Source: Candidatus Kapaibacterium sp. (GTDB taxonomy: Bacteria > Bacteroidota > Ignavibacteria > Kapaibacteriales > UBA2268). Taken from it: 64,000 nucleotides of DNA. Positions 10,870-23,338 of the stretch are shown here, piece after piece. Location: NCBI GenBank assembly GCA_963665665.1, contig OY762428.1:448001-512000 (forward strand). The letters run 5' to 3'. The stretch's first letter is position 1. Every line of letters starts with the position of its first letter. Below the pieces are notes generated by a model. That model was not told where the DNA came from and did no database searches. It was given only the letters and a program-made list of their open reading frames with translations. Both the position numbers and the translations under genes were made by a program.

Positions 10870-11889
<1,020 letters not shown>

Positions 11890-11905
11890 CTTACAATTGA
11901 GCTTT

Positions 11906-11936
11906 AAGGCTGTATCGAAAATACAGCCTTTTTTTT
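11906..11936 (+). terminator. Intrinsic terminator between gap and pgk
   Basis: AAGGCTGTAT-cgaaa-ATACAGCCTT followed by a T-run. Confidence 0.8.
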
Positions 11937-12067
11937 CTTTTCAGGCAAAATTGAACTTTTTCTATCAGAAATTAATTCTTATCTTGGATAGAATTTTTAT
12001 TTGGATTAGAATATTACATTCAAGTAGTATATAACATAAGTGATATTAACAGAATTAAAGGTTTGAT

Positions 12068-13261
12068 ATGTTACATTCAATGGATGATGTAAACTTTAAA
12101 TTCAAACATGTTTTGGTCAGGGTTGACTTCAATGTCCCCCTTGATTCTAAACAAAATATTACCGACGACATGAGGATAATTGAATCCCTGCCAACAATAG
12201 ACCAGATAATCGACGATGGCGGAATACCGATCGTTCTTTCACACCTTGGAAGGCCTAAAGGCAAGATAAACAGCAAATATTCTCTTGACACAGTTGCCCA
12301 CTACCTTCAGAAAAAATTCGGCTATGATGTGATATTCTCGCAGGACTGCAGGGGAAACAAACCACAAAGAGCCGTAAACAATGCAAAGCCGGGCGACATC
12401 GTTCTTCTTGAAAACCTTCGATTCTATGAAGGAGAAACAGCTAATGATCCGGAATTTGCAGCTGAACTGGCAGAACTTGGTGATGCCTATGTAAACGATG
12501 CTTTCGGTACTGTCCATCGCGCTCATGCCAGTATCCATGCTTTGCCAAAACTATTCCCCGGAAAATCCTATGCGGGTAAATCGCTTGTTTACGAGATCGA
12601 ATACCTTAATAACGCACTTACCGAACCGAGAAGCCCGTATATCGCAGTTATTGGCGGGGCCAAGATATCAGGCAAAATTGAAGTTATTCGGTCATTGATC
12701 AATCAGTGCGATACCGTTATCATTGGCGGCGGTATGATGTTCAATTTCCTGAAAGCTAAAGGATATAATATAGGCCGCTCGATATTCGAGGAAGATAAAA
12801 TCGAACTTGCAGCAGACCTGATTAAATTTGCCGAAAAAAAAGGCGTTAAACTTTTATTGCCGGAAGATGTTGTTGTAGCTGACAGGTTCTCTGATGATTC
12901 TGACAGGAATGACGTTCCTTCCGACAAAATCCCATCCGACTGGATAGGAATGGATATTGGTCCGAAAACTCAGGAATTATACAGGAAAGAAATACTCGGG
13001 GCTAAAACAATTGTTTGGAACGGCCCTATGGGAGTATTTGAAATGCCGAGATTTGCTCGCGGTACCAGGGCTGTTGCAAACTCGCTTGCTAATGTTACCG
13101 CTAAAGGGGCTACAACAATTCTTGGCGGAGGCGATTCGGCAGCAGCTATGAGCCAAATGCACCTTATCAACAAAGTAACTCATGTTACTCCGGGCGGCGG
13201 AGCATGGCTTAAATATATGGAAGGCGGAGAACTTCCGGGGATATCATCGCTTGTTATATAG
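12068..13261 (+). CDS. pgk: Phosphoglycerate kinase
   Basis: [58 protein letters not shown]; atypical C-terminal [12 protein letters not shown]. Confidence 0.93.
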
Positions 13262-13291: not shown

Positions 13292-13317
13292 GGCGGTCAT
13301 TATTATGATCGCCTTTT
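13292..13317 (+). terminator. Probable terminator after pgk
   Basis: GGCGGTCAT-tatt-ATGATCGCC followed by TTTT. Confidence 0.6.
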
Positions 13318-13519
13318 ATATTTTCAAACATTTCTTAACAAGGTGTGAAACTTTTTATTAACTACCGGGCTATCAGAACCTTTCAATTAAAACATGATAC
13401 TATAAAATAGAATTCCAGGCATTTTTTTTTGTTCACCGGTTTCTGAATATGATTTATTCATCACAAATGATGCCTGCTGCACCCCGGCTGAATGAAATTT
13501 CGGCACAAAAGATTATTCC

Positions 13520-13811
13520 GAAAGCTCGGGGGAACGCTCAGAAAGCTCAAGGGAACGCTCGGAAAGCTCGGGGGAACGCTCGGAAAGCTCGGGGGAACGC
13601 TCGGAAAGCTCGGGGGAATGCTCGGAAAGCACGGGGGAACGCTCGGAAAGCTCGGGGGAACGCTCGGAAAGCTCGAGGGAATGCTCGGAAAGCTCAAGGG
13701 AACGCTCGGGAAGCTCGGGGGAACGCTCGGAAAGCTCAAGGGAACGCTCGGGAAGCTCGGGGGAACGCTCGGAAAGCTCAAGGGAACGCTCGGGAAGCTC
13801 GGGGGAATGCT
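13520..13811. repeat. 21-bp tandem repeat, about 14 copies (consensus GAAAGCTCGGGGGAACGCTCG)
   Basis: Directly visible, with no spacers. The last six units alternate as a 42-bp higher-order repeat. Confidence 0.95.
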
Positions 13812-14008
13812 ATGATGACATGAATCAAGGCTGATATCGCTTGGAATATTGGCAATTAAAAAAACAACATTCTTATCTGAAAGAAAAAGAATATCTAAAA
13901 AAACCAGGATAGTCCTTATTTTGCGCCGAAGCAGCCCGGATTATATATACAAGGAACATACTACACCCAACCATCTGTAAGGGATGTATTATGAATAGCA
14001 AAGAAATC

Positions 14009-14183
14009 GGGGATGTATCATTTTTCTGAATTTTTACGATTTGTAATTCCCCGAGAAAGCTCCGATAAATCGGGACAAGCTGAGGGCAGGCGAAAGCGTT
14101 GTGAAAAATCCGGTATTCATGCTGGTTCTGGATTCTTCGCTGCCCTCAGAGTGACAATATTGGCCGCTTATGAGAAATCCCCT
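14009..14183. mobile_element. REP/MITE-like palindromic element (GTCATTCTGAG...CTCAGAATGAC type), degenerate
   Basis: CTGAGGGCAG..GTGAAAAATCC pairs with GGATTCTTCGCTGCCCTCAG. Inner ends TTGTAATTC/GAGTGACAA; outer imperfect IR GGGGATGTATCAT/ATGAGAAATCCCC. Confidence 0.65.
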
Positions 14184-14196
14184 TTTTTGTCTCCTG

Positions 14197-16617
14197 TTAT
14201 TCTCCGCCCTTGACAAATTTCTTTGTCAGCATGTAGCCGTCGGACGTTAGTTTTATAAAATATACACCCATTGGAAATCCTGCCATATCAATAGTAAATT
14301 TAGACGTTGAACCGTCGTTATTGCGGTTGGCCTCAAAAGAGTAATCTGCTTTTTCCGTTCCGTAAATATCAATTAATTTCACTGATAATTCTTTACCTTC
14401 GACTGAATACAGGCCGTATAGCTTAACATTTGCCGTATTTGTAACGGGATGCGGATTTATATCAATATGGAAATAACGGTTGTATTTATATTCGGCGGCG
14501 TATTCCTCCACCCCTACCTGGTGTTCAGGAATACCCTTAACTATCCTGCCGGCTCCGCTTATGTATATGCAGCCGTCCTTGCCCATTACCATTTTCCTCA
14601 GGGAGCCGCCTACATCGGCTCTGAAACCGGCATAGTTCAGATCAACTTCTTCCCAGCTTTGCCCCTCGTCAGTAGTGAATGCAATATTATTCCGTCCGTC
14701 GGTAATCAATATACGCCCGTCTTCAAGGCCAAGCATGTCTCCTACATTCTTGTATGGCGAGGGAATATGATCCCATGTTGTTCCCTCGTCGGTCGATCTT
14801 AAAATACCGAGGCTGTCTCCGCCTGTTAAGTATATATTCCCATTAATATATTCAATTCCCCCGTAATAGGCATCCCTGCTATCAAGCGCATAAACGGAAT
14901 CATAGCTTTCTCCCCTGTTGTCAATCCGAAAAATCCTGAATACTGTTTTAATCCCGTAGGGGAAATTAACAGTATCATCGGTTTTAACTCTGTTCTCTTC
15001 GCTGAAAATATAAGCGCTTTCGCCGGAAACAAGGGCGGCAGATTTGATCACCCCTTTTATATAATCCAGGGTATCATGCACCCAACTTCCCCCGCCATCG
15101 CTGCTCCTTACGGCTTCATTTATCCAGACAACAGAAGAATACAAATTACCGGATAGAACAAGGAAATTCTCATTATCAAATGCAAGGAATTCCATACCGC
15201 CGCAAACGTCCGTATTCGTCCAGTTTTTACCACCGTCGCTTGTTTCAATACTTAGATAATATGGCCAATATGGATTTTGATTTGCACTCCTGTTACCAAA
15301 CAAAAAGCCTTCTTTACTATTCTTAAAATATCCGCATGTCATATCTGATTCTGAAATCCCTGCTATTTGAAACCAGTATTCCTGTTCTTCCTCCGAAAGT
15401 GAATCATTCCAGCCGATATTGGGATATGCCTGATCCCAGCTTGCCCCGGCATCGTCGCTCCGGAATACTGCCGCGCCGTCAATCCTTAAAGCCAGCAGTG
15501 TTGAATCGGATGCCGGTATTAAATCAATTAATACTTTTTCACTTTGCCAGGTTAAATAAAAAGTATAGCAATAGCGGTTAATATCAAAATTCTCCCCGCT
15601 GTCGTTGCTGAATGATATCATCCTGAATAATTGCAGAGCGGCAATGTTATTTTCGTCATAAGCAGAAAAATCTAAAAATGACTGACCGTAAGGGCTATAT
15701 GAATAGATTGAATACTTGTCCATAAAAGCAGTATCCGGCCTGTATGTTTTAAAATTGTCTTCGGTTCTAATTAAATGCCCCAATCCCAGCCCCAAAAGAA
15801 TTGTATCAGAGTTAAACGTAATTAAACAGGACACCCTTGATATCCTACAGATTTCCGGGTCCAATTCTGTAATTTTCCAGCTTTCGCCCCCGTCGAGAGT
15901 TCTCGCAATATAAGTAGAATAAGTTGCTGAATTAGTATCAGAATAAGCTATTGTACCGTTTCTTCCGTCGGAAAAATCCATGGCTGTATATAAATGACCG
16001 TTATTATAACTGTTTGTATCATTATAAACAATGCTCCAGTTTTTTCCGCCGTCGCTGCTTTTGCTTAGTAGCCCCAGGGTAGTAAGGTGATAAATATAAT
16101 TTGTTTCGGGGGCATCAATGTCAACTGTTTCAATATCCCCGAAATCAATTTTTTCCTGCCAGCTATTGCCCATATCGCTGCTTTTGTATAATTTTCCGGC
16201 ATCGCTTGCAATATAGGTTTCTTCGGGCGAAGCATTTGCCATGCAGGAAAACGAAGAACTTCCGAAGCCGGCTGCCGCCCAGTTTTTGCCGCCGTCCGTT
16301 GTTGTTTCTATCATTCCATTGTCCCCGGCAATCACCCAGTTATTAAAATCATAATAAACAATACTGCTGATATTTTCGCGCGTACCGGTTTCAATATATC
16401 TCCACTTTTCTCCCCGGTTCTCGGTTATCATCAGGTAGCCGTTATTGCCGGAAACAAGGCATGTAAGCGAATCCATAAGCTTTATATCGCTGTAGTATGG
16501 TATCATGTTCTGCCATACATAGCCGCCGCCCTTATAATCGAGGGATTTTGACGTTGTAGGGCTGAATATCTGAACTAAAAATATTAATGATGCTATAATA
16601 TATATTTTCCGGCTCAT
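14197..16617 (-). CDS. Secreted BNR/Asp-box (YCF48-like) beta-propeller protein with T9SS type A sorting domain, copy A
   Basis: Signal peptide, many S/T-x-D-G-G-x-x-W Asp-boxes, C-terminal PHPVTN...GVYFIKL...KKFVK. Confidence 0.9.
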   Translation of the reverse strand: MSRKIYIIASLIFLVQIFSPTTSKSLDYKGGGYVWQNMIPYYSDIKLMDSLTCLVSGNNGYLMITENRGEKWRYIETGTRENISSIVYYDFNNWVIAGDNGMIETTTDGGKNWAAAGFGSSSFSCMANASPEETYIASDAGKLYKSSDMGNSWQEKIDFGDIETVDIDAPETNYIYHLTTLGLLSKSSDGGKNWSIVYNDTNSYNNGHLYTAMDFSDGRNGTIAYSDTNSATYSTYIARTLDGGESWKITELDPEICRISRVSCLITFNSDTILLGLGLGHLIRTEDNFKTYRPDTAFMDKYSIYSYSPYGQSFLDFSAYDENNIAALQLFRMISFSNDSGENFDINRYCYTFYLTWQSEKVLIDLIPASDSTLLALRIDGAAVFRSDDAGASWDQAYPNIGWNDSLSEEEQEYWFQIAGISESDMTCGYFKNSKEGFLFGNRSANQNPYWPYYLSIETSDGGKNWTNTDVCGGMEFLAFDNENFLVLSGNLYSSVVWINEAVRSSDGGGSWVHDTLDYIKGVIKSAALVSGESAYIFSEENRVKTDDTVNFPYGIKTVFRIFRIDNRGESYDSVYALDSRDAYYGGIEYINGNIYLTGGDSLGILRSTDEGTTWDHIPSPYKNVGDMLGLEDGRILITDGRNNIAFTTDEGQSWEEVDLNYAGFRADVGGSLRKMVMGKDGCIYISGAGRIVKGIPEHQVGVEEYAAEYKYNRYFHIDINPHPVTNTANVKLYGLYSVEGKELSVKLIDIYGTEKADYSFEANRNNDGSTSKFTIDMAGFPMGVYFIKLTSDGYMLTKKFVKGGE

Positions 16618-16679
16618 TTTTTTTCCTCTTGGAATTATATTAAAAATTTCTATTTTTGTTCAGGCGTTTTTAAAAGCCC

Positions 16680-16706
16680 GGGGGACTTCCCGAAGGACAA
16701 TCCCCC
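16680..16706 (-). terminator. Intergenic UUCG-loop hairpin between the Cys-rich gene and the propeller gene (copy A)
   Basis: Minus strand reads GGGGGATTGTCC-TTCG-GGAAGTCCCCC with a weak T-tail; partial terminator or mRNA stabiliser. Confidence 0.5.
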
Positions 16707-16754
16707 GTTACCAGTCATGCAGAGTCTGTAAATGTGCTTTTAATTGCGCCTTTT

Positions 16755-17342
16755 TTAATTGCACTCAGAGTGACATCCAGTATCACAATCATCACCGATT
16801 ACAGATTTACCAATCGGAATAGCTGTTTTATTCCCGTTACCGTCGCAACAAACTTCTAATTCTGTTCTGCAATATGAATTCCCGCCACTACATGGTGTAC
16901 CATTATTATCATCCCAACAGTTATCATAATAAAAGCGATAATTTGGTTCTGTTGTAGGGCAGGGTGGGCATGGCCACTGATTGTTATCCGGATTCTGTTC
17001 AATCAATGCATAAGCGGCAAGTTCTAATAATTCAGGCCCGCTGGGGGGTGGTTGAATCTGGTTAAAACAAGTAATATCAACAGGCCCTACAAGCCACACG
17101 TAAACTTCAATCATTGGCTCCACGTCGCCAATATTACGCCAGCAATACCCCACTTTGTAATCACATGTAATACCGTTAACAGTTATAGAAACAATTGTTC
17201 CCCCTCCGTCTATCCAGGGAATATTCGGAGGTATAGCTCCGTCCGGCGGACAACCCTGTTGCGCCAGGGCATTCTGATTCATGCTGAAAAATGAAACCAA
17301 AAGAACTGCAAACAAAAGGATAAAACTTCTGCCTTTTTTCAT
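16755..17342 (-). CDS. Secreted cysteine-rich protein (14 Cys), copy A
   Basis: SPI-type signal (..NALA/QQ), 14 Cys including CPPC and CC. GGAG RBS upstream of ATG 17342 (the ORF track uses TTG 17354). Confidence 0.88.
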   Translation of the reverse strand: MKKGRSFILLFAVLLVSFFSMNQNALAQQGCPPDGAIPPNIPWIDGGGTIVSITVNGITCDYKVGYCWRNIGDVEPMIEVYVWLVGPVDITCFNQIQPPPSGPELLELAAYALIEQNPDNNQWPCPPCPTTEPNYRFYYDNCWDDNNGTPCSGGNSYCRTELEVCCDGNGNKTAIPIGKSVIGDDCDTGCHSECN

Positions 17343-17468
17343 GATAAACTCCAAAATTAATTAAATAAGAATAATTAATGATTTAACATCCTATGTTAAA
17401 CCTGATATTTAAATTTTATACCAAATATGTTTCAAACATAATATCTTATTTATAACTGTGTTTAATTA

Positions 17469-19844
17469 TCATTCCTTCACAAACTTACCCTTCAAAGTAG
17501 CGCCGCCGCTGCTGATGGACACAACATAAGCCCCGGCTGGGAGCATGGAAATATCAAGTTTTATTTCACCCCCGGAAATTATATATGCTGTTTGGCTAAG
17601 AACGATATTCCCTTCCATATCAGTAATGCTGATTTCAGCAATGCCGTCTATTTCATTTCCCGGCCGGATTGATATTGAATTTGCTGCGGGGTTGGGGAAG
17701 ACGTAGATTAACGATGCCTGATTTTTAAATTCTTCCACCCCTACCTGGTGTTCAGGAATACCTTTAACTATCCTGCCGGCTCCGCTTATGTATATGCAGC
17801 CGTCCTTGCCCATTACCATTTTCCTCAGGGAACCGCCTACATCGGCTCTGAAACCGGCATAGTTCAGATCAACTTCTTCCCAGCTTTGCCCCTCATCAGT
17901 AGTGAATGCAATATTATTCCGGCCGTCTGTAATCAATATACGCCCGTCTTCAAGGCCGAGCATGTCTCCTACATTCCTGTATGGCGAGGGAATATGATCC
18001 CATGTTGTTCCCTCGTCAGTCGATCTTAAAATACCGAGGCTGTCTCCGCCTGTTAAGTATATATTCCCATTAATATATTCAATTCCCCCGTAATAGGCAT
18101 CCCTGCTATCAAGCGCATAAACGGAATCATAGCTTTCTCCCCTGTTATCAGTCCGGAAAATCCTGAATACTGTTTTAATCCCGTAGGGGAAATTAACAGT
18201 ATCATCGGTTTTAACTCTGTTCTCTTCGCTGTAAATATAAGCGCTTTCGCCGGAAACAAGGGCGGCAGATTCGATCACCCCTTTTATATAATCCAGGGTA
18301 TCATGCACCCAGCTCCCCCCGCCGTCGCTGCTCCTTACGGCTTCATTTATCCAGCCAACAGAAGAATACAAACTGCCGGATAGAACAAGGAAATTCTCAT
18401 TGTCGAAAGCAAGGAATTCCATACCGCCGCAAATGTCCGTATTCGTCCAGTTTTTACCACCATCGCTTGTTTCAATACTTAAATAATATGACCAATATGC
18501 CGACTGAGAGCAACTCCTGTTACCAAATATAAAACCTTCTTTACTATTCTTAAAATATCCGCAAGTCATATCTGATTCTGAATTGCCCGCAATAGTTACC
18601 CAAAAATCCTGTTCTTCTTCCGAAAGTGAATCATTCCAGCCGATATTGGGATAAGCCTGGTCCCAGCTTGCCCCGGCATCGTCGCTCCTGAATACAGCAG
18701 CCCCGTCAATCCTTAAAGCCAGCAGTGTTGAATCGGATGCCGGAATAAAATCAATTAATACTTTCTCTCTTTGCGCTGTTAAATAAAAAGTATTGCAATA
18801 TCGGTTAATATCAAAATTCTCCCCGCCGTCGTTGCTGAATGATATCATCCTGTTTAATTGCAGAGCGGCAATGTTATTTTCGTCATAAGCAGAAAAATCT
18901 AAAAATAACCGGCCGTAACCGTTATAAGAATAAATTGAATACTTGTCCATAAATGATGTATCCGGCCTATATGTTTTAAAATTGTCATCGGTTCTAATTA
19001 AATGCCCTGCATTTTGACCCAATAAAATATTATCATTATCAAATGTTATTATACATCTTGTCATATAAGGTTTGTAGATTTTCGGGTCCAATGCTATAAT
19101 TTGCCAGCTTTCACCCCCGTCGAGCGTTCTCGCAATATAATCAGTAAAAGTAGCAGAATTAGTATCAGCAAAAGCTATTGTACCATTATTACCATCAGAA
19201 AAATCCATGGCTGTATATAAATGACCGTTCTTATAACTATTTGTATCATTATAAACAATGCTCCAGTTTTTTCCGCCGTCGCTGCTTTTGCTTAGTTGCC
19301 CCAGGGTAGTAAGGTGGTAAATATAATTTGTTTCGGGGGCATCAATGTCAACTGTTTCAATATCCCCGAAATCAATTTTTTCCTGCCAGTTATTGCCCAT
19401 ATCACTGCTTTTGTATAATTTTCCGGCATCGCTTGCAATATAGGTTTCTTCGGGTGAAGCATTTGCCATGCAGGAAAACGAAGAACTTCCGAAGCCGGCT
19501 GCCGCCCAGTTTTTTCCACCGTCCGTAGTTGTTTCTATCATTCCATTGTCCCCGGCAATCACCCAGTTATTAAAATCATAATAAACAATACTGCTGATAT
19601 TTTCGCGCGTACCGGTTTCAATATATCTCCATTTTTCTCCCCGATTCTCGGTTATCATCAGGTAGCCGTTATTGCCGGAAACAAGGCATGTAAGCGAATC
19701 CATAAGCTTTATATCGCTGTAGTATGGTATCATGTTCTGCCATACATAGCCGCCGCCTTTGTAATCGAGGGATTTTGACGTTGTAGGGCTGAATATCTGA
19801 ACTAAAAATATTAATGATGCTATAATATATATTTTCCGGCTCAT
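17469..19844 (-). CDS. Secreted BNR/Asp-box beta-propeller protein with T9SS type A sorting domain, copy B
   Basis: As copy A but with a different CTD (VFPNPAANSI...GAYVVSI...KGKFVKE). Confidence 0.9.
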   Translation of the reverse strand: MSRKIYIIASLIFLVQIFSPTTSKSLDYKGGGYVWQNMIPYYSDIKLMDSLTCLVSGNNGYLMITENRGEKWRYIETGTRENISSIVYYDFNNWVIAGDNGMIETTTDGGKNWAAAGFGSSSFSCMANASPEETYIASDAGKLYKSSDMGNNWQEKIDFGDIETVDIDAPETNYIYHLTTLGQLSKSSDGGKNWSIVYNDTNSYKNGHLYTAMDFSDGNNGTIAFADTNSATFTDYIARTLDGGESWQIIALDPKIYKPYMTRCIITFDNDNILLGQNAGHLIRTDDNFKTYRPDTSFMDKYSIYSYNGYGRLFLDFSAYDENNIAALQLNRMISFSNDGGENFDINRYCNTFYLTAQREKVLIDFIPASDSTLLALRIDGAAVFRSDDAGASWDQAYPNIGWNDSLSEEEQDFWVTIAGNSESDMTCGYFKNSKEGFIFGNRSCSQSAYWSYYLSIETSDGGKNWTNTDICGGMEFLAFDNENFLVLSGSLYSSVGWINEAVRSSDGGGSWVHDTLDYIKGVIESAALVSGESAYIYSEENRVKTDDTVNFPYGIKTVFRIFRTDNRGESYDSVYALDSRDAYYGGIEYINGNIYLTGGDSLGILRSTDEGTTWDHIPSPYRNVGDMLGLEDGRILITDGRNNIAFTTDEGQSWEEVDLNYAGFRADVGGSLRKMVMGKDGCIYISGAGRIVKGIPEHQVGVEEFKNQASLIYVFPNPAANSISIRPGNEIDGIAEISITDMEGNIVLSQTAYIISGGEIKLDISMLPAGAYVVSISSGGATLKGKFVKE

Positions 19845-19905
19845 TTTTTTCCTCTTGGAATTATATTAAAAATTTCTATTTTTGTTCAGGCGTTTTTAAA
19901 AGCCT

Positions 19906-19932
19906 GGGGGACTTCCCGAAGGACAATCCCCC
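19906..19932 (-). terminator. Intergenic UUCG-loop hairpin (copy B)
   Basis: Same sequence as 16680-16706. Confidence 0.5.
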
Positions 19933-19981
19933 GTTACCAGTCATGCAAAGTCTGTAAATGTGCTTTTAATTGCGCCTTTTT

Positions 19982-20563
19982 TTAATTACATTGAGGTTCA
20001 CAAGGAGAAACACAATCATCACCGATTACAAAGGAATTCAATGTATTAGTTATTCTATTCCCGTTACCGTCGCAACATACTTCCAGTTCCGTTCTGCAAT
20101 ATGAATTACCACCGGCACAAGGACTTCCGTTATACCAACAGTTATCATAATAAAAGCGATAATTTGGTTCTGTTGTAGGGCAGGGGGGGCATGGCCACTG
20201 ATTGTTATCCGGATTCTGTTTGATCAATGCATAAGCGGCAAGTTTTAATAATTCAGGCCCGCTGGGGGGTGGTTGAATCTGGTTAAAACAATTAATATCA
20301 ATTGGACTGACATCCCATACGTAAACTTCAATCATTGGCTCCACGTCGCCAATATTACGCCAGCAATACCCCACTTTGTAATCACATGTAATACCGTTAA
20401 CAGTTATAGAAACAATTGTTCCCCCTCCGTCTATCCAGGGAATATTCGGTGGGATAGCTCCGTCCGGCGGACAACCCTGTTGCGCCAGGGCATTCTGATT
20501 CATGCTGAAAAATGAAACCAAAAGAACTGCAAACAAAAGGATAAAACTTCTGCCTTTTGTCAT
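19982..20563 (-). CDS. Secreted cysteine-rich protein (14 Cys), copy B
   Basis: Paralog of 16755-17342 with all 14 Cys conserved; AGGAG RBS. Confidence 0.88.
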   Translation of the reverse strand: MTKGRSFILLFAVLLVSFFSMNQNALAQQGCPPDGAIPPNIPWIDGGGTIVSITVNGITCDYKVGYCWRNIGDVEPMIEVYVWDVSPIDINCFNQIQPPPSGPELLKLAAYALIKQNPDNNQWPCPPCPTTEPNYRFYYDNCWYNGSPCAGGNSYCRTELEVCCDGNGNRITNTLNSFVIGDDCVSPCEPQCN

Positions 20564-20640
20564 GGCAAACTCCTGTAAATAATTTGTAAATAACTAACAA
20601 TGCGGCAATATTCCGCATGTAATATTATTTGTATTTAATT

Positions 20641-20874
20641 GTTACTATTCAGTTGAACAATGTAAATTCGATAAAATTGTATGAAGCTGTCATACTGAGC
20701 GACTTGTCCCGAGCACATTATTTTGTATTGACCTATCGGGAAGTGAAGTATCCATTCTTCTACATATTCTGCTATATTATGTGGATTCTTCCCTCACTGC
20801 GCTCGGTCAGAATGACATTTCTCTGCATTTTTTCTTCAATAACAGCAATATATTGTACCCACCTGAGTAGAAAC
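20641..20874. mobile_element. REP/MITE-like palindromic element
   Basis: Core TGTCATACTGAGCGA...GAAGTATCC / GGATTCTTC...TCAGAATGACA (20688-20817); outer imperfect IR GTTACTATTCAGTTG/CACCTGAGTAGAAAC. Flanks resemble 44918-45120. Confidence 0.7.
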
Positions 20875-21071
20875 ATTTATTTTAGTATTTAATCAATTAC
20901 AATTAGCATTATTAAATTTTTCCTCCCAACTCCCTATCTTGTCTAAACCGGCATTCAGGGGAAGTATTTTCTCATCATTAATTTAACGTACAAAGTAAAA
21001 AAAAAAAATGAAAATTACAAGTAAAAATGAAAAAGAATATTTATACACGATACAATCCGTCATTGTATTTC

Positions 21072-21183
21072 CTCCTTCCAAGATTGCACTTTGGAAGTTC
21101 ATTTTCCATAAAGTTTCACTTTAGATTTCCTGAAGCAAAGCTTTTGTTGAAAACAGCATTACGAAGTGCAACTTCGTAATGAG
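21072..21183. repeat. Multi-hairpin REP-like element of a second type
   Basis: Hairpins CTTCCAAG..TTTGGAAG, TAAAG..CTTTA, GAAGC..GCTTT and CATTACGAAG-TGCAA-CTTCGTAATG; the first and last loops (TTGCAC/GTGCAA) are mutually complementary. Confidence 0.55.
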
Positions 21184-21223
21184 CTGCCTGTAAAAGTTTA
21201 TACTGATTACTTTTATTATTCTT

Positions 21224-23338
21224 TTACTCCCCGCAAACTTTCATTTTCTCAGCTTTGGCAGCTTTCAGCCCGAGCCTTTCTGCTATATCAAAATCCTGGC
21301 AGCATTCATTTTTATGCCCCATATTCAGATGGCAGTAGGCCCTGAGGAAATAAGCCTGCGCAAGCCGGGGATTCAGGTCGATAGCTTTTGTAAGGTCTTT
21401 CAGTGCGGCTTTCAGGCTTCCGAGGTGCAGCAAAGCCTCTCCCCTTTCCAGGTATGCCGAAGCATTTTTCCTGTCAAGTTGAATTGCCTTTTCCAGGTCT
21501 GGCAGGGCTTCCCTGAATTTACCAGCCTGAACAAGCAGGTATCCCCTGCTCAGGAAATATTCCGTTTCATTGGGGTTAATCTCAATTGATTTGGTAAAAT
21601 CGGCATAAGCTTCCGGAATACGTCCGCTTTCCAGCAGGGCGTGGCCACGCAGGTTATATAGCTTGGAATCTTTGGGATTAACCTTCAGGCCATTGCTGTA
21701 ATCAATTAGTGCAAGCTCCCTCCTGCCGGTTTCCATATACACATAGCCTCGGGTTCCATACAGTTTAAAATTATTAGAATCAAGGGCTATGGCTTTGTCC
21801 AGATTTTTTTCCGCTCCGGCCAGGTCTCCGCTTTTTACTTTTTCAACGGCATTCTGGTAAAGGAAATAATCATTATCAAGGAACTTTGGCTGCAGTTCGG
21901 TAAAGTCCCCCGGACGCAGATTCACAAATTCAGGTATATTGCACGCCCGGCCTGGCTTCCACATGTTTTCGAGTAATACAGGCGGAGAATCATTACCGTT
22001 CTCATCAATATGAGTAAGGTAAAGGCGCGTATATTTATCATGCATTTTGGATGAAAATACCAGCCATTTGCCATTAGGCGACCATGAATGCCAGGAGTTC
22101 ATATTGTCCGAATTGCATTGCATTTCCCTTGGCTCTCCTCCTTCTGCCGGCATAATAAACAGTTTGCTGTCCGGTTGGAGCAGCATAAAACTTTCCGCCT
22201 GGTTGAACACGATCCATTTTCCATCCGGCGACATCCTGGGATAATAGTTACTTTTTCCGTTTTTTGATGCTCCCGGCACAGGTTGGGCTTTGCCGCCCCT
22301 CCCCTCGTTGAAAGGTATGCGATAAATATCATATTTGAATTTTTTATCATGCAGAACAAAATCATCAGCAAGGCGGTTAAAAATAGAAGTATCCTTATCA
22401 AAAGCATTTGTAAAGCCGCTTTCGCCGGCCTTGATTGCCGTGGCTTTTGCAAATAGTATTTCCCTGCCGTCGGGACTCCAGGACGGATTAGACTGAACAT
22501 AATTTATATCATCTGCCCCCGGCAAAGCTGCATAAGTGCCTTTGTGCCTGTCGCTTATCACCAGGATACCGTGAATGGGAAAAAACAACTGAGAATAAGC
22601 CGTGTCCGGCCTTGTTACGAAGAAATTATGATCTTTTAATGTTGCAGCAATATATCTTCCCGAAGGCGATATATTAGCCAGAAGGCCGTAAGTAGGCTCT
22701 CCATCCTGATATTCGCTCCAGTGCATCATTTTGTACAGTACTGTTTTCTTAGCAATATCCGTGATCCCGTAGGCATCTTTGTCGCTGTGGGCATCAACAT
22801 CCATACCAAGCACCCTGCCGTTAGCCGAAAAGGAATGGCAATTTGCACACACGTGGATATTTTCCATGAGTATTGTTGAAGGCTCGTCAGAGGAAATATC
22901 CCCAATTCGCCATTTTATTTCTTTAAGGTTTGCAAGTGCATATTTAAACGGCAGAGGAACATCACGAAAAAATATGGGGGCAATAACAGAATCTTCCGAT
23001 ACAATTATTTTTACTGAGGATAATTCTTTACCGTAACGGTCGTTGAGAACAATTTTACCATTATTGCCAATACAGGCGGCCTTGAACTTTTCCCATTCAC
23101 CCCTTTCAGGTTTCCATTCTTTACCGTTAATTTTTCCTTCAATCTTTGTATCTCCTGATTCAAGAGAAATATTCATACCAACAGCATCGCCCGAGAATCG
23201 GATAACAGGAGATGCAATATCCGGTGGAAATATTGTATTTTCAGCGGGATAAGTTATAGCAATGCCATTATTGCCAGCAGATAAAAAATAAATAAAAAAT
23301 GCAGTTATTATTGAAATTAAGAAAAGCGTGCGTTTCAT
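21224..23338 (-). CDS. Exported protein with CxxCH motif, TolB-like PD40 repeats and C-terminal TPRs
   Basis: CANCHSF; SNPSWSPDG, YPRMSPDGKW, WHSWSPNGKW; several TPRs at the C-terminus. Confidence 0.85.
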   Translation of the reverse strand: MKRTLFLISIITAFFIYFLSAGNNGIAITYPAENTIFPPDIASPVIRFSGDAVGMNISLESGDTKIEGKINGKEWKPERGEWEKFKAACIGNNGKIVLNDRYGKELSSVKIIVSEDSVIAPIFFRDVPLPFKYALANLKEIKWRIGDISSDEPSTILMENIHVCANCHSFSANGRVLGMDVDAHSDKDAYGITDIAKKTVLYKMMHWSEYQDGEPTYGLLANISPSGRYIAATLKDHNFFVTRPDTAYSQLFFPIHGILVISDRHKGTYAALPGADDINYVQSNPSWSPDGREILFAKATAIKAGESGFTNAFDKDTSIFNRLADDFVLHDKKFKYDIYRIPFNEGRGGKAQPVPGASKNGKSNYYPRMSPDGKWIVFNQAESFMLLQPDSKLFIMPAEGGEPREMQCNSDNMNSWHSWSPNGKWLVFSSKMHDKYTRLYLTHIDENGNDSPPVLLENMWKPGRACNIPEFVNLRPGDFTELQPKFLDNDYFLYQNAVEKVKSGDLAGAEKNLDKAIALDSNNFKLYGTRGYVYMETGRRELALIDYSNGLKVNPKDSKLYNLRGHALLESGRIPEAYADFTKSIEINPNETEYFLSRGYLLVQAGKFREALPDLEKAIQLDRKNASAYLERGEALLHLGSLKAALKDLTKAIDLNPRLAQAYFLRAYCHLNMGHKNECCQDFDIAERLGLKAAKAEKMKVCGE

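Follow-up and report, generated by a model that had tools for sequence, protein, structure and literature searches.

Proteins exported by the secretion system of type IX (T9SS) are usually seen as single chains that are recognised via their own C-terminal domain (CTD), and beta-propellers of the BNR type are among the most expanded secreted proteins in the class Ignavibacteria. Here we describe two tandem modules at positions 14197-20563 of a 64,000-nucleotide stretch of the genome of Candidatus Kapaibacterium sp. (the window, hereafter), each of which joins a gene for a small Cys-rich secreted protein (CysA or CysB) to a gene for a double propeller with a T9SS CTD (PropA or PropB), in the order CysB-PropB-CysA-PropA along the minus strand. 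We show that this pair has been inherited and duplicated as a unit, across the class and many times within this genome. As to what the Cys-rich protein does, we tentatively favour the reading, based on sequence and model comparisons, that it may be a dedicated extracytoplasmic partner subunit of the T9SS-exported propeller, a reading that we hold as the best of several rather than as a settled one.

Several described systems resemble parts of this arrangement. First, the T9SS cargo proteins with a type A CTD that are named YCF48-related or BNR proteins in Bacteroidota and Ignavibacteria-like bacteria, of which hundreds of relatives are so named, share with the window propellers a putative signal peptide, Asp-box blades and a CTD of the Por_Secre_tail family; the difference is that the window propellers and their subfamily are always preceded by a Cys-rich partner gene. 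Second, the xyloglucanases of glycoside hydrolase family 74 (GH74; 7kn8, 6p2m) are likewise made of two tandem seven-bladed propellers (~700 residues), but identity is 11-15%, sequence similarity is found at the level of the repeat only, and no invariant acid is present outside the Asp-boxes in partner-linked propellers. To our knowledge, GH74 enzymes do not have a Cys-rich partner. Third, in sortilin (Vps10 propeller and 10CC module) and in the semaphorins (Sema and PSI domains) a propeller is joined to a small disulfide-rich module. The combination of a propeller with a Cys-rich module is shared, with Pfam Sortilin-Vps10 matches of 44.6 and 44.8 bits, as an analogy only: sortilin has 10 blades, as opposed to 7+7 here, and the Cys-rich part here is a separate chain without detected similarity to solved folds. 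Fourth, the SusC/SusD-like families are two-gene surface modules that have multiplied and co-diversified within one genome; they have no homology to the Cys-propeller pair and belong to another secretion route.

Two further comparisons come from the T9SS itself. According to one report, PorZ of the T9SS attachment complex hands anionic lipopolysaccharide (A-LPS) to PorU (PMC8545088). PorZ (5m11) also consists of two propellers followed by a CTD (Foldseek E 2e-16), but its template-modelling (TM) score is only 0.25-0.27, and it is a single-copy machine component, in contrast to the many diversified and partnered copies described here. SprF/PorP-like accessory genes, in turn, lie beside the genes for cargo with type B CTDs, such as SprB (compare PMC12618676), and have multiplied with that cargo. 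They resemble the present case in that a dedicated accessory gene adjoins a T9SS cargo gene; however, SprF/PorP-like proteins are outer-membrane beta-barrels for type B CTDs, whereas the partner considered here is small, soluble and disulfide-rich, goes with a type A CTD and is encoded upstream. In the full texts that we searched, which covered few subscription journals and whose supplementary lists may hold such pairs, no Cys-rich partner of a T9SS propeller cargo was described.

Two tandem modules at the locus

The four genes were identified from their open reading frames (ORFs), all on the minus strand. In the upstream module, CysB (19982-20563) is a small secreted protein of 193 amino acids with a signal peptide, 14 Cys and no Pfam family, and PropB (17469-19844; 791 amino acids) has a putative signal peptide, a double BNR/Ycf48-like beta-propeller and a T9SS type A CTD. 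In the downstream module, CysA (16755-17342) is a small secreted protein of 195 amino acids, also with 14 Cys, and PropA (14197-16617; 806 amino acids) again combines a double propeller with a T9SS type A CTD, termed CTD_A (about 14197-14500). An alternative TTG start at 17354 would extend CysA from the 195 residues given by the ATG to 199. Between the Cys and propeller genes of each module lies a hairpin capped by a UUCG tetraloop, namely, hairpin A at 16679-16707 (-20.7 kcal/mol; followed by GGGCUUUU) and hairpin B at 19906-19932 (-18.2 kcal/mol; followed by GGCUUUU). All parts of the two tandem copies described in an earlier note on this DNA, including the retention of 14 Cys in both small proteins, were thus confirmed at the locus.

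Alignment of the DNA placed the two copies in repeat unit A (14502-17352), which holds CysA, the spacer and the body of PropA without its CTD, and repeat unit B (17729-20573), which holds CysB, the spacer and the body of PropB without its CTD. These units are 92.4% identical over 2858 columns (~2.85 kb), at a spacing of 3227, and extend from ~10 nucleotides (nt) 5' of the Cys start codon to the junction between propeller body and CTD. The encoded proteins are 83% identical for PropA and PropB (670/810) and 86% identical for CysA and CysB (168/195). Two elements fall outside the repeat. One is the CTD, for which CTD_A and CTD_B (coding part 17469-17701) differ by 0.88 nonsynonymous substitutions per site (dN), that is, about as much as unrelated CTDs. 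The other is an AT-rich and unique spacer of 126 nt from the PropB stop to the CysA start (17343-17468). A short-read contig from a source-like run covers 17308-17793 with 0 differences, and because it bridges this unique spacer, the tandem order of the modules is not an artefact of assembly.

Inheritance and duplication of the pair as one unit

A search with a single protein as query found a Cys homolog in 5 of 60 relatives, and in all of them (5/5) the next gene, on the same strand, encodes a propeller of 775-840 amino acids. A family profile matched 59 of the 401 class genomes at E <= 1e-5; these belong to 7 of 33 families and have up to six copies per genome. We then counted linkage in the 29 best loci, one per genome. 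A BNR propeller ORF lies directly downstream, on the same strand, in 25/29 of them; another large protein takes this place in three, namely, two proteins of 752-755 amino acids with a T9SS CTD and one FG-GAP propeller protein of 728 amino acids; and the remaining locus ends at a contig edge. Cys-propeller gaps range from -41 to +137 nt, and three further loci have the propeller ORF just upstream of the Cys gene. The pair has different neighbours at different loci, among them DnaB, an aminotransferase, PhoU and EngA, so that the conserved unit is the pair itself. The earlier note had named a lack of linkage between the Cys-rich gene and propeller genes elsewhere as grounds against its proposal, and the linkage was found in both samples, the five relatives and the 29 loci. 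Duplication recurs as well: genome G232 has tandem modules whose propellers are 58% identical and whose second Cys gene is truncated, and Cys-Cys-propeller arrangements are found repeatedly, with Cys paralogs that are 51-60% identical. In one relative (L008:1836-3803), a single case, the opposite strand encodes a DsbD-type thiol:disulfide interchange protein ~2.2 kb upstream of the Cys gene.

Similar modules are numerous within the genome of the window. For this analysis, ORFs of 90-320 amino acids with at least 10 Cys were collected, which gave 240, mostly spurious frames over a dispersed 21-nt repeat, and 12 Cys-rich ORFs with a signal-peptide-like start were chosen from them by eye. First, for ten of these 12 a protein of 502-890 amino acids is encoded at most 92 nt downstream; the propeller profile matched 9/12 downstream ORFs, and Por_Secre_tail was present on 8/11 candidate cargo proteins, so that the genome has at least ten modules beyond the locus pair. 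Second, comparison with the window Cys family using hhalign gave a probability of 97.8% (E 1e-12) for one group of four small proteins, which are clearly its homologs, and uncertain values, 77.6% and 38.5%, for two other groups. Third, small and large proteins share the same subgroups, namely, {winA, winB}, {1214k, 3421k}, {1268k, 1912k, 2003k} and {1754k, 1983k, 2235k, 3011k}, and the two groupings correlate with a Spearman coefficient of 0.71 over 66 pairs that are not independent. From this shared grouping it follows that modules duplicate as units, without partners being swapped between subfamilies.

The genome has many BNR paralogs, and the nearest unpartnered propeller among them (105562-107748), which bears a CTD, is only 22-23% identical to the window propellers. 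Directly upstream of this closest unpartnered propeller there is a PorE-like gene of 513 amino acids, with PD40, CarboxypepD_reg and OmpA domains (the two together at C1:104016-107748). Another locus of the same genome (C1:3421423-3424362) encodes a Cys-rich protein of 226 amino acids, a T9SS protein of 504 amino acids and a second Cys-rich protein of 237 amino acids, followed by an MlaD gene; here a module has an additional Cys-rich gene behind it.

Sequence and structure of the two partners

Neither CysA nor CysB matched a Pfam or NCBIfam model, and Pfam applied to all 37 family members gave nothing meaningful. A phmmer search of 1.84 billion representative proteins returned 43 family proteins, nearly all of 175-230 amino acids. 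The alignment of 37 sequences shows a signal peptide and 12 Cys that are invariant or at least 90% conserved, all of which are retained among the 14 of CysA and of CysB; W43, R69 and G170 are also at least 90% conserved, and the consensus has a stretch PCPPCP, in which the P residues are not invariant. The AlphaFold2 (AF2) model of CysA is a compact alpha/beta domain, with a predicted local distance difference test score (pLDDT) of 89.2 and a predicted TM score of 0.81. Foldseek gave 0 matches to this model in the PDB at E <= 0.001, and VIA-align, run against 48,161 chains, reached a Z of at most 5.4 (2qx2_A, root-mean-square deviation 5.5 over 119 residues), with none at Z >= 8, which does not by itself establish a novel fold; the ESM Atlas gave only unnamed clusters of Bacteroidota, with scores of 0.87-0.91.

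The C-termini of the family are informative about its location. An extension of at least 55 amino acids is present in 9/49 Cys ORFs from the examined loci, a set in which some loci occur more than once. Por_Secre_tail, scanned for in eight of the extended ORFs, was above its cut-off in two (36.5 and 33.5 bits), just under it in one (22.9 bits) and faint in one. The CTD-bearing Cys proteins are themselves cargo of the T9SS, and their neighbour is a single propeller of about 440-456 amino acids. The presence of their own T9SS CTD implies that at least some members of the family act outside the outer membrane.

PSII_BNR, Sortilin-Vps10, BNR and Por_Secre_tail all match PropA and PropB above the Pfam cut-offs. 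The CTD of PropA scores 28.2 bits for PF18962 (Por_Secre_tail; cut-off 27) and 25.4 for TIGR04183 (cut-off 23), and that of PropB scores 44.4 and 39.0 bits, respectively, both above cut-off. By eye the propeller N-terminus is hydrophobic, and residues 3-18 form a helix in the AF2 model of PropA, which shows a double propeller and a beta-sandwich CTD (pLDDT 78.3). The top Foldseek matches of this model are GH74 xyloglucanases (at least eight entries; E 1e-19 to 1e-18, TM 0.40-0.47), ahead of PorZ and of sensor domains from hybrid two-component systems of Bacteroides; in sequence, Ycf48 is the closest solved protein (E 6e-22), through similarity of individual blades. In the seven partner-linked propellers that we compared, all 20 invariant columns before the CTD are the G, W, D or T of Asp-box-type motifs, and no invariant acidic residue was found among them outside these motifs. 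That no conserved catalytic acid was seen fits a binding scaffold better than an enzyme, weakly so with seven sequences. The genome encodes the T9SS translocon SprA (TIGR04189, 956.6 bits, cut-off 200); of the two T9SS components searched for, the other, GldK, had no equivalog above cut-off. Folded proteins are moved by the T9SS, as stated in a review (PMC9251779).

Three assignments of the propellers or of the pair were tried and rejected. First, the photosystem II assembly factor Ycf48/HCF136 does not fit: the cut-off of its model NF010237 is 326 bits, the scores here are 54.5 and 71.8, and there are two propellers and a CTD in place of one seven-bladed propeller. Second, the Sortilin Vps10 match covers positions 3-63 and 2-112 of a profile of 446, the blades are 7+7 and the propeller chain is without a Cys-rich module. 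Third, a polymorphic toxin/immunity pair is not what the architecture suggests: the propeller protein ends in a T9SS CTD, its variable block sits in the middle, and the small gene is found upstream and encodes a signal peptide. Pfam and NCBIfam, the libraries used, gave no toxin family for these proteins; PADLOC and other toxin libraries were not searched.

Possible roles of the Cys-rich partner

Under the reading that we favour, the Cys protein would be exported by Sec and would fold oxidatively in the periplasm, forming about six disulfides in ~165 mature residues. It would then bind its own propeller and work with it outside the outer membrane, where it could arrive on the propeller's CTD or, in lineages that have one, on its own; the outcome would be a surface binding module. 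Our main reason for placing the partner at the surface, rather than in the periplasm alone as a chaperone or inhibitor, is that some family members bear their own T9SS CTD.

For the binding of the Cys protein to the propeller, which we infer, the prediction of a complex between PropA 24-705 and CysA 29-195 scored 0.00 in both runs, which is no evidence either way. Other observations tell against this reading. Longer or fused Cys-propeller forms were looked for and none was found, a weak piece of evidence. Most family members, both window copies included, are without a CTD; we know of no case of piggy-back export via the T9SS, and none was found in the literature searched. Taken together, the CTD-less majority and the lack of a known piggy-back export mean that Cys proteins may stay in the periplasm.

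If it were true, the hitch-hiking partner would be the first such T9SS cargo, and the pair a bacterial counterpart, in trans, of the propeller with a Cys-rich cap in sortilins, semaphorins and integrins. A conserved partner gene that is mostly CTD-less, has been duplicated repeatedly, is without a family model and yields a confidently modelled fold with no clear relative among solved structures also points to an unstudied layer of accessory factors in type IX secretion or in the function of surface proteins. A more elaborate form of the favoured reading, which on sequence grounds we consider possible but rather unlikely, is that of two-chain surface receptors: the propeller would carry its CTD-less, disulfide-knotted partner out of the cell, and a repertoire of binding specificities would have arisen from the resulting heterodimers as duplication, CTD capture and gene conversion multiplied and reshuffled them.

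Among the alternatives, the one that survives best, although we think it unlikely on balance, places the partner in the periplasm as a chaperone, an inhibitor or an immunity-like protein, which would bind the propeller there, keep it folded or inactive until T9SS export, and be left behind. A Sec signal peptide and many disulfides are what such a protein is expected to have, a C-terminal extension or CTD is missing from 40/49 Cys ORFs and from both copies in the window, and the strict adjacency and specific partners agree with it too. However, the two members with a confident T9SS CTD, and the one with a marginal CTD, would have the domain outside the cell, and the propellers show no conserved toxin or enzyme signature. 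In most toxin-immunity pairs, moreover, the small gene does not lie upstream as it does here.

The partner and the propeller may also be functionally coupled without forming a complex, a less probable alternative, in which both proteins would act on the same external substrate, for instance with the propeller binding a glycan and the partner serving as a separate binding or redox protein, and would be co-regulated only. Adjacency by itself is no proof of binding, and the propeller fold resembles that of the GH74 glycanases. The DNA between the genes also bears on this alternative. The whole 137-nt Cys-propeller spacer has a folding z of -3.8, and the hairpin spacers A and B are identical in 134/138 columns. 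A promoter-like TGAACA-17-TATAAT (10 of 12) is found between hairpin and propeller start in both copies, at 16634-16662 and 19860-19888, in a sequence where promoter-like sites overall are not above the shuffled expectation (22 seen, 23.2 expected). An Rfam scan of 13300-21300 gave nothing at gathering score, its sole match being sR14 at E 0.37, and a consensus terminator scan did not call the UUCG hairpin a terminator. Hairpin and promoter-like site together could mean that the Cys and propeller genes are expressed separately at this locus, which counts for the alternative without a complex and against a partner subunit. On the other hand, the tracking of subfamilies through repeated duplications exceeds what co-regulation needs, in other genomes the two genes often overlap or are less than 30 nt apart, and no conserved catalytic acid was seen in the propellers.

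A probable recombination mosaic between the two modules

The earlier note had read the patchy differences between modules A and B as co-divergence in which both partners diversify on an interaction surface. The patches themselves are real: all nine quoted pairs of replacements (9/9) were found in the protein alignments, and the propeller ends are near-identical, with one difference in residues 1-180 and four in residues 501-705. The differences are concentrated in two blocks, namely, residues 201-500 of PropA (15118-16017; B counterpart 18345-19244) and residues 143-195 of CysA, at the 3' end of its gene (16755-16916; B counterpart 19982-20137).

We estimated dN and the synonymous substitutions per site (dS) along both genes, using Nei-Gojobori counts obtained with our own script. 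In the propeller gene, codons 1-200 have a dS of 0.087 (dN/dS 0.05), codons 201-500 a dS of 0.388 (dN 0.106, dN/dS 0.27) and codons 501-705 a dS of 0.103 (dN/dS 0.08), and in windows of 30 codons local dS reaches 0.9-1.6. In the Cys gene, dS is 0.057 in codons 1-82 and 0.136 in codons 83-142, is saturated in codons 143-165, where 10.5 of 13 synonymous sites differ, and is 0.288 in codons 166-195 (dN/dS ~1.26). This heterogeneity of synonymous change is significant by chi-square in both genes (p=6e-8 for the propeller, p=7e-9 for Cys). Since dS is raised in the same patches as amino-acid change, the patches are best seen as older or imported DNA within a recombination mosaic. One near-identical tract starts at the end of the Cys gene, takes in the hairpin spacer and reaches into the first 200 propeller codons. 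Stronger constraint does not explain such near-identical flanks, because across orthologs the core of the propeller is conserved to the same degree as they are (entropy 1.53 for the core, 1.49 and 1.58 for the flanks).

From these sequence comparisons, the near-identical stretches appear to be recent conversion or recombination tracts, and the patchiness primarily a recombination mosaic. Conversion or recombination would have homogenised three stretches, namely, the 5' half of the Cys gene, the hairpin spacer with propeller codons 1-200, and the final 200 codons of the propeller, while two older or imported blocks would persist under purifying to relaxed selection. Three signals do not sit easily with this account. 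First, dN/dS is higher in the propeller core than in its flanks (0.27 vs 0.05-0.08; Fisher p=8e-4). Second, dN/dS in Cys codons 166-195 differs from that in the rest of the gene (p=0.002), if not from neutrality (p=0.57). Third, differences in the core are enriched in the D-A/B-C loops, on the face opposite to the Asp-boxes (31/124 vs 20/176, p=0.003); blade loops were assigned by eye from AF2 secondary structure, and the difference between D-A/B-C and A-B loops is not significant (p=0.23). A binding face may therefore have undergone some adaptive divergence; the selection signals as a whole fit relaxed, surface-exposed sites and do not require adaptive change.

The CTDs add a further element to the mosaic. 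CTD_B is 88% identical in nucleotide sequence to the 3' end of a gene at C1:3615646-3615878 of the same genome, and 82% identical to the end of another gene, at 3622475-3622682. The match to the 3' end of a paralog indicates that the upstream copy acquired its CTD from a paralogous gene, which suggests that CTD cassettes may be exchanged between T9SS cargo genes.

Other populations hold the two types of module apart. First, the 90% clusters of the window proteins contain one further Cys protein and one propeller (P0001 and P0044), both on a contig of 210 kb. This Cys protein is of the B type with one private change, and the propeller is of the B type throughout its body, except for one A-type and one private residue, and ends in CTD_A. 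Second, in a run from another study, labelled as another organism, a contig joins 14536 to 17764, skipping 3227 nt, that is, one unit, with 68 shared letters at the joint; it corresponds to a single B-type module with CTD_A. No contig of the same run lies on 14544-16109, within the A-type body, although contigs cannot show absence. Third, in a groundwater metagenome from a third study a contig matches the A-type core (14960-15967) at 96.2% identity, differing at 38 of 1008 positions, and almost nothing lies on the B core; no contig of at least 85% identity was found on CysA, with the same limit on what contigs can show. Judged from these sequences, B-type and A-like modules exist separately in nature, and the genome of the window has both in tandem.

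This separation counts in favour of allele-specific ligand-receptor or kin-recognition pairs, whose A and B interaction surfaces would co-diversify under positive selection. The single-copy relative pairs a B-type Cys protein with a B-type propeller body, module duplication and divergence recur elsewhere, and the enrichment in the top-face loops and the dN/dS of the last Cys codons point in the same direction. We nevertheless regard such pairs as improbable. Divergence time rather than selection explains the patchiness, given the dS in the same patches; the propeller core, at a dN/dS of 0.27, is well below 1, a result that the earlier note had listed as telling against its proposal, and the Cys C-terminus is not above neutral; the positions that vary between CysA and CysB are the generally variable columns of the family (entropy 3.01 vs 2.35, p=0.003); and only two haplotypes are known. 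Hence, of the earlier proposal, the specific cognate pair is strongly supported, owing to class-wide linkage and matching subfamilies, whereas the allele-specific, co-diversifying interface and self-recognition are not supported. More generally, a mosaic of tandem paralogs, with conversion tracts, CTD capture and single- and double-copy forms, may be mistaken for co-evolving interfaces when protein sequence alone is considered. As for a polymerising Cys subunit, forming a fibre or layer held on the cell by an A-LPS-anchored propeller, it would suit a small, disulfide-stabilised protein of an abundant type, and the hairpin after the Cys gene could raise its transcript over that of the propeller, but the compact globular alpha/beta model (pLDDT 89), without donor-strand or repeat features, makes it very improbable.

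Surroundings of the modules

The DNA around the modules is rich in repeats. A 21-nt tandem array of 13.9 copies, with the unit GAAAGCTCGGGGGAACGCTCG, occupies 13520-13811. Arrays of the same kind are apparently dispersed through the genome, and dozens of Cys-containing ORFs are frames across them; summed contig depth is ~1531 on 13500-13760 and ~20-130 nearby. The 660-nt region 5' of CysB (20564-21223) consists of dispersed intergenic repeats, for which blastn gave over 80 matches genome-wide at 70-90% identity, and a palindromic element related to these repeats lies just past PropA (14100-14160).

Upstream of the modules, 21224-23338 on the minus strand encodes a protein of 704 amino acids that has PD40 (TolB-like propeller) repeats and, at the C-terminus, an array of TPRs. 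This gene is probably a separate transcription unit, because a terminator-like hairpin comes after it (21157-21181). On the other side, 10897-13261 on the plus strand holds two ORFs convergent with the modules, which by eye are like glyceraldehyde-3-phosphate dehydrogenase and phosphoglycerate kinase.

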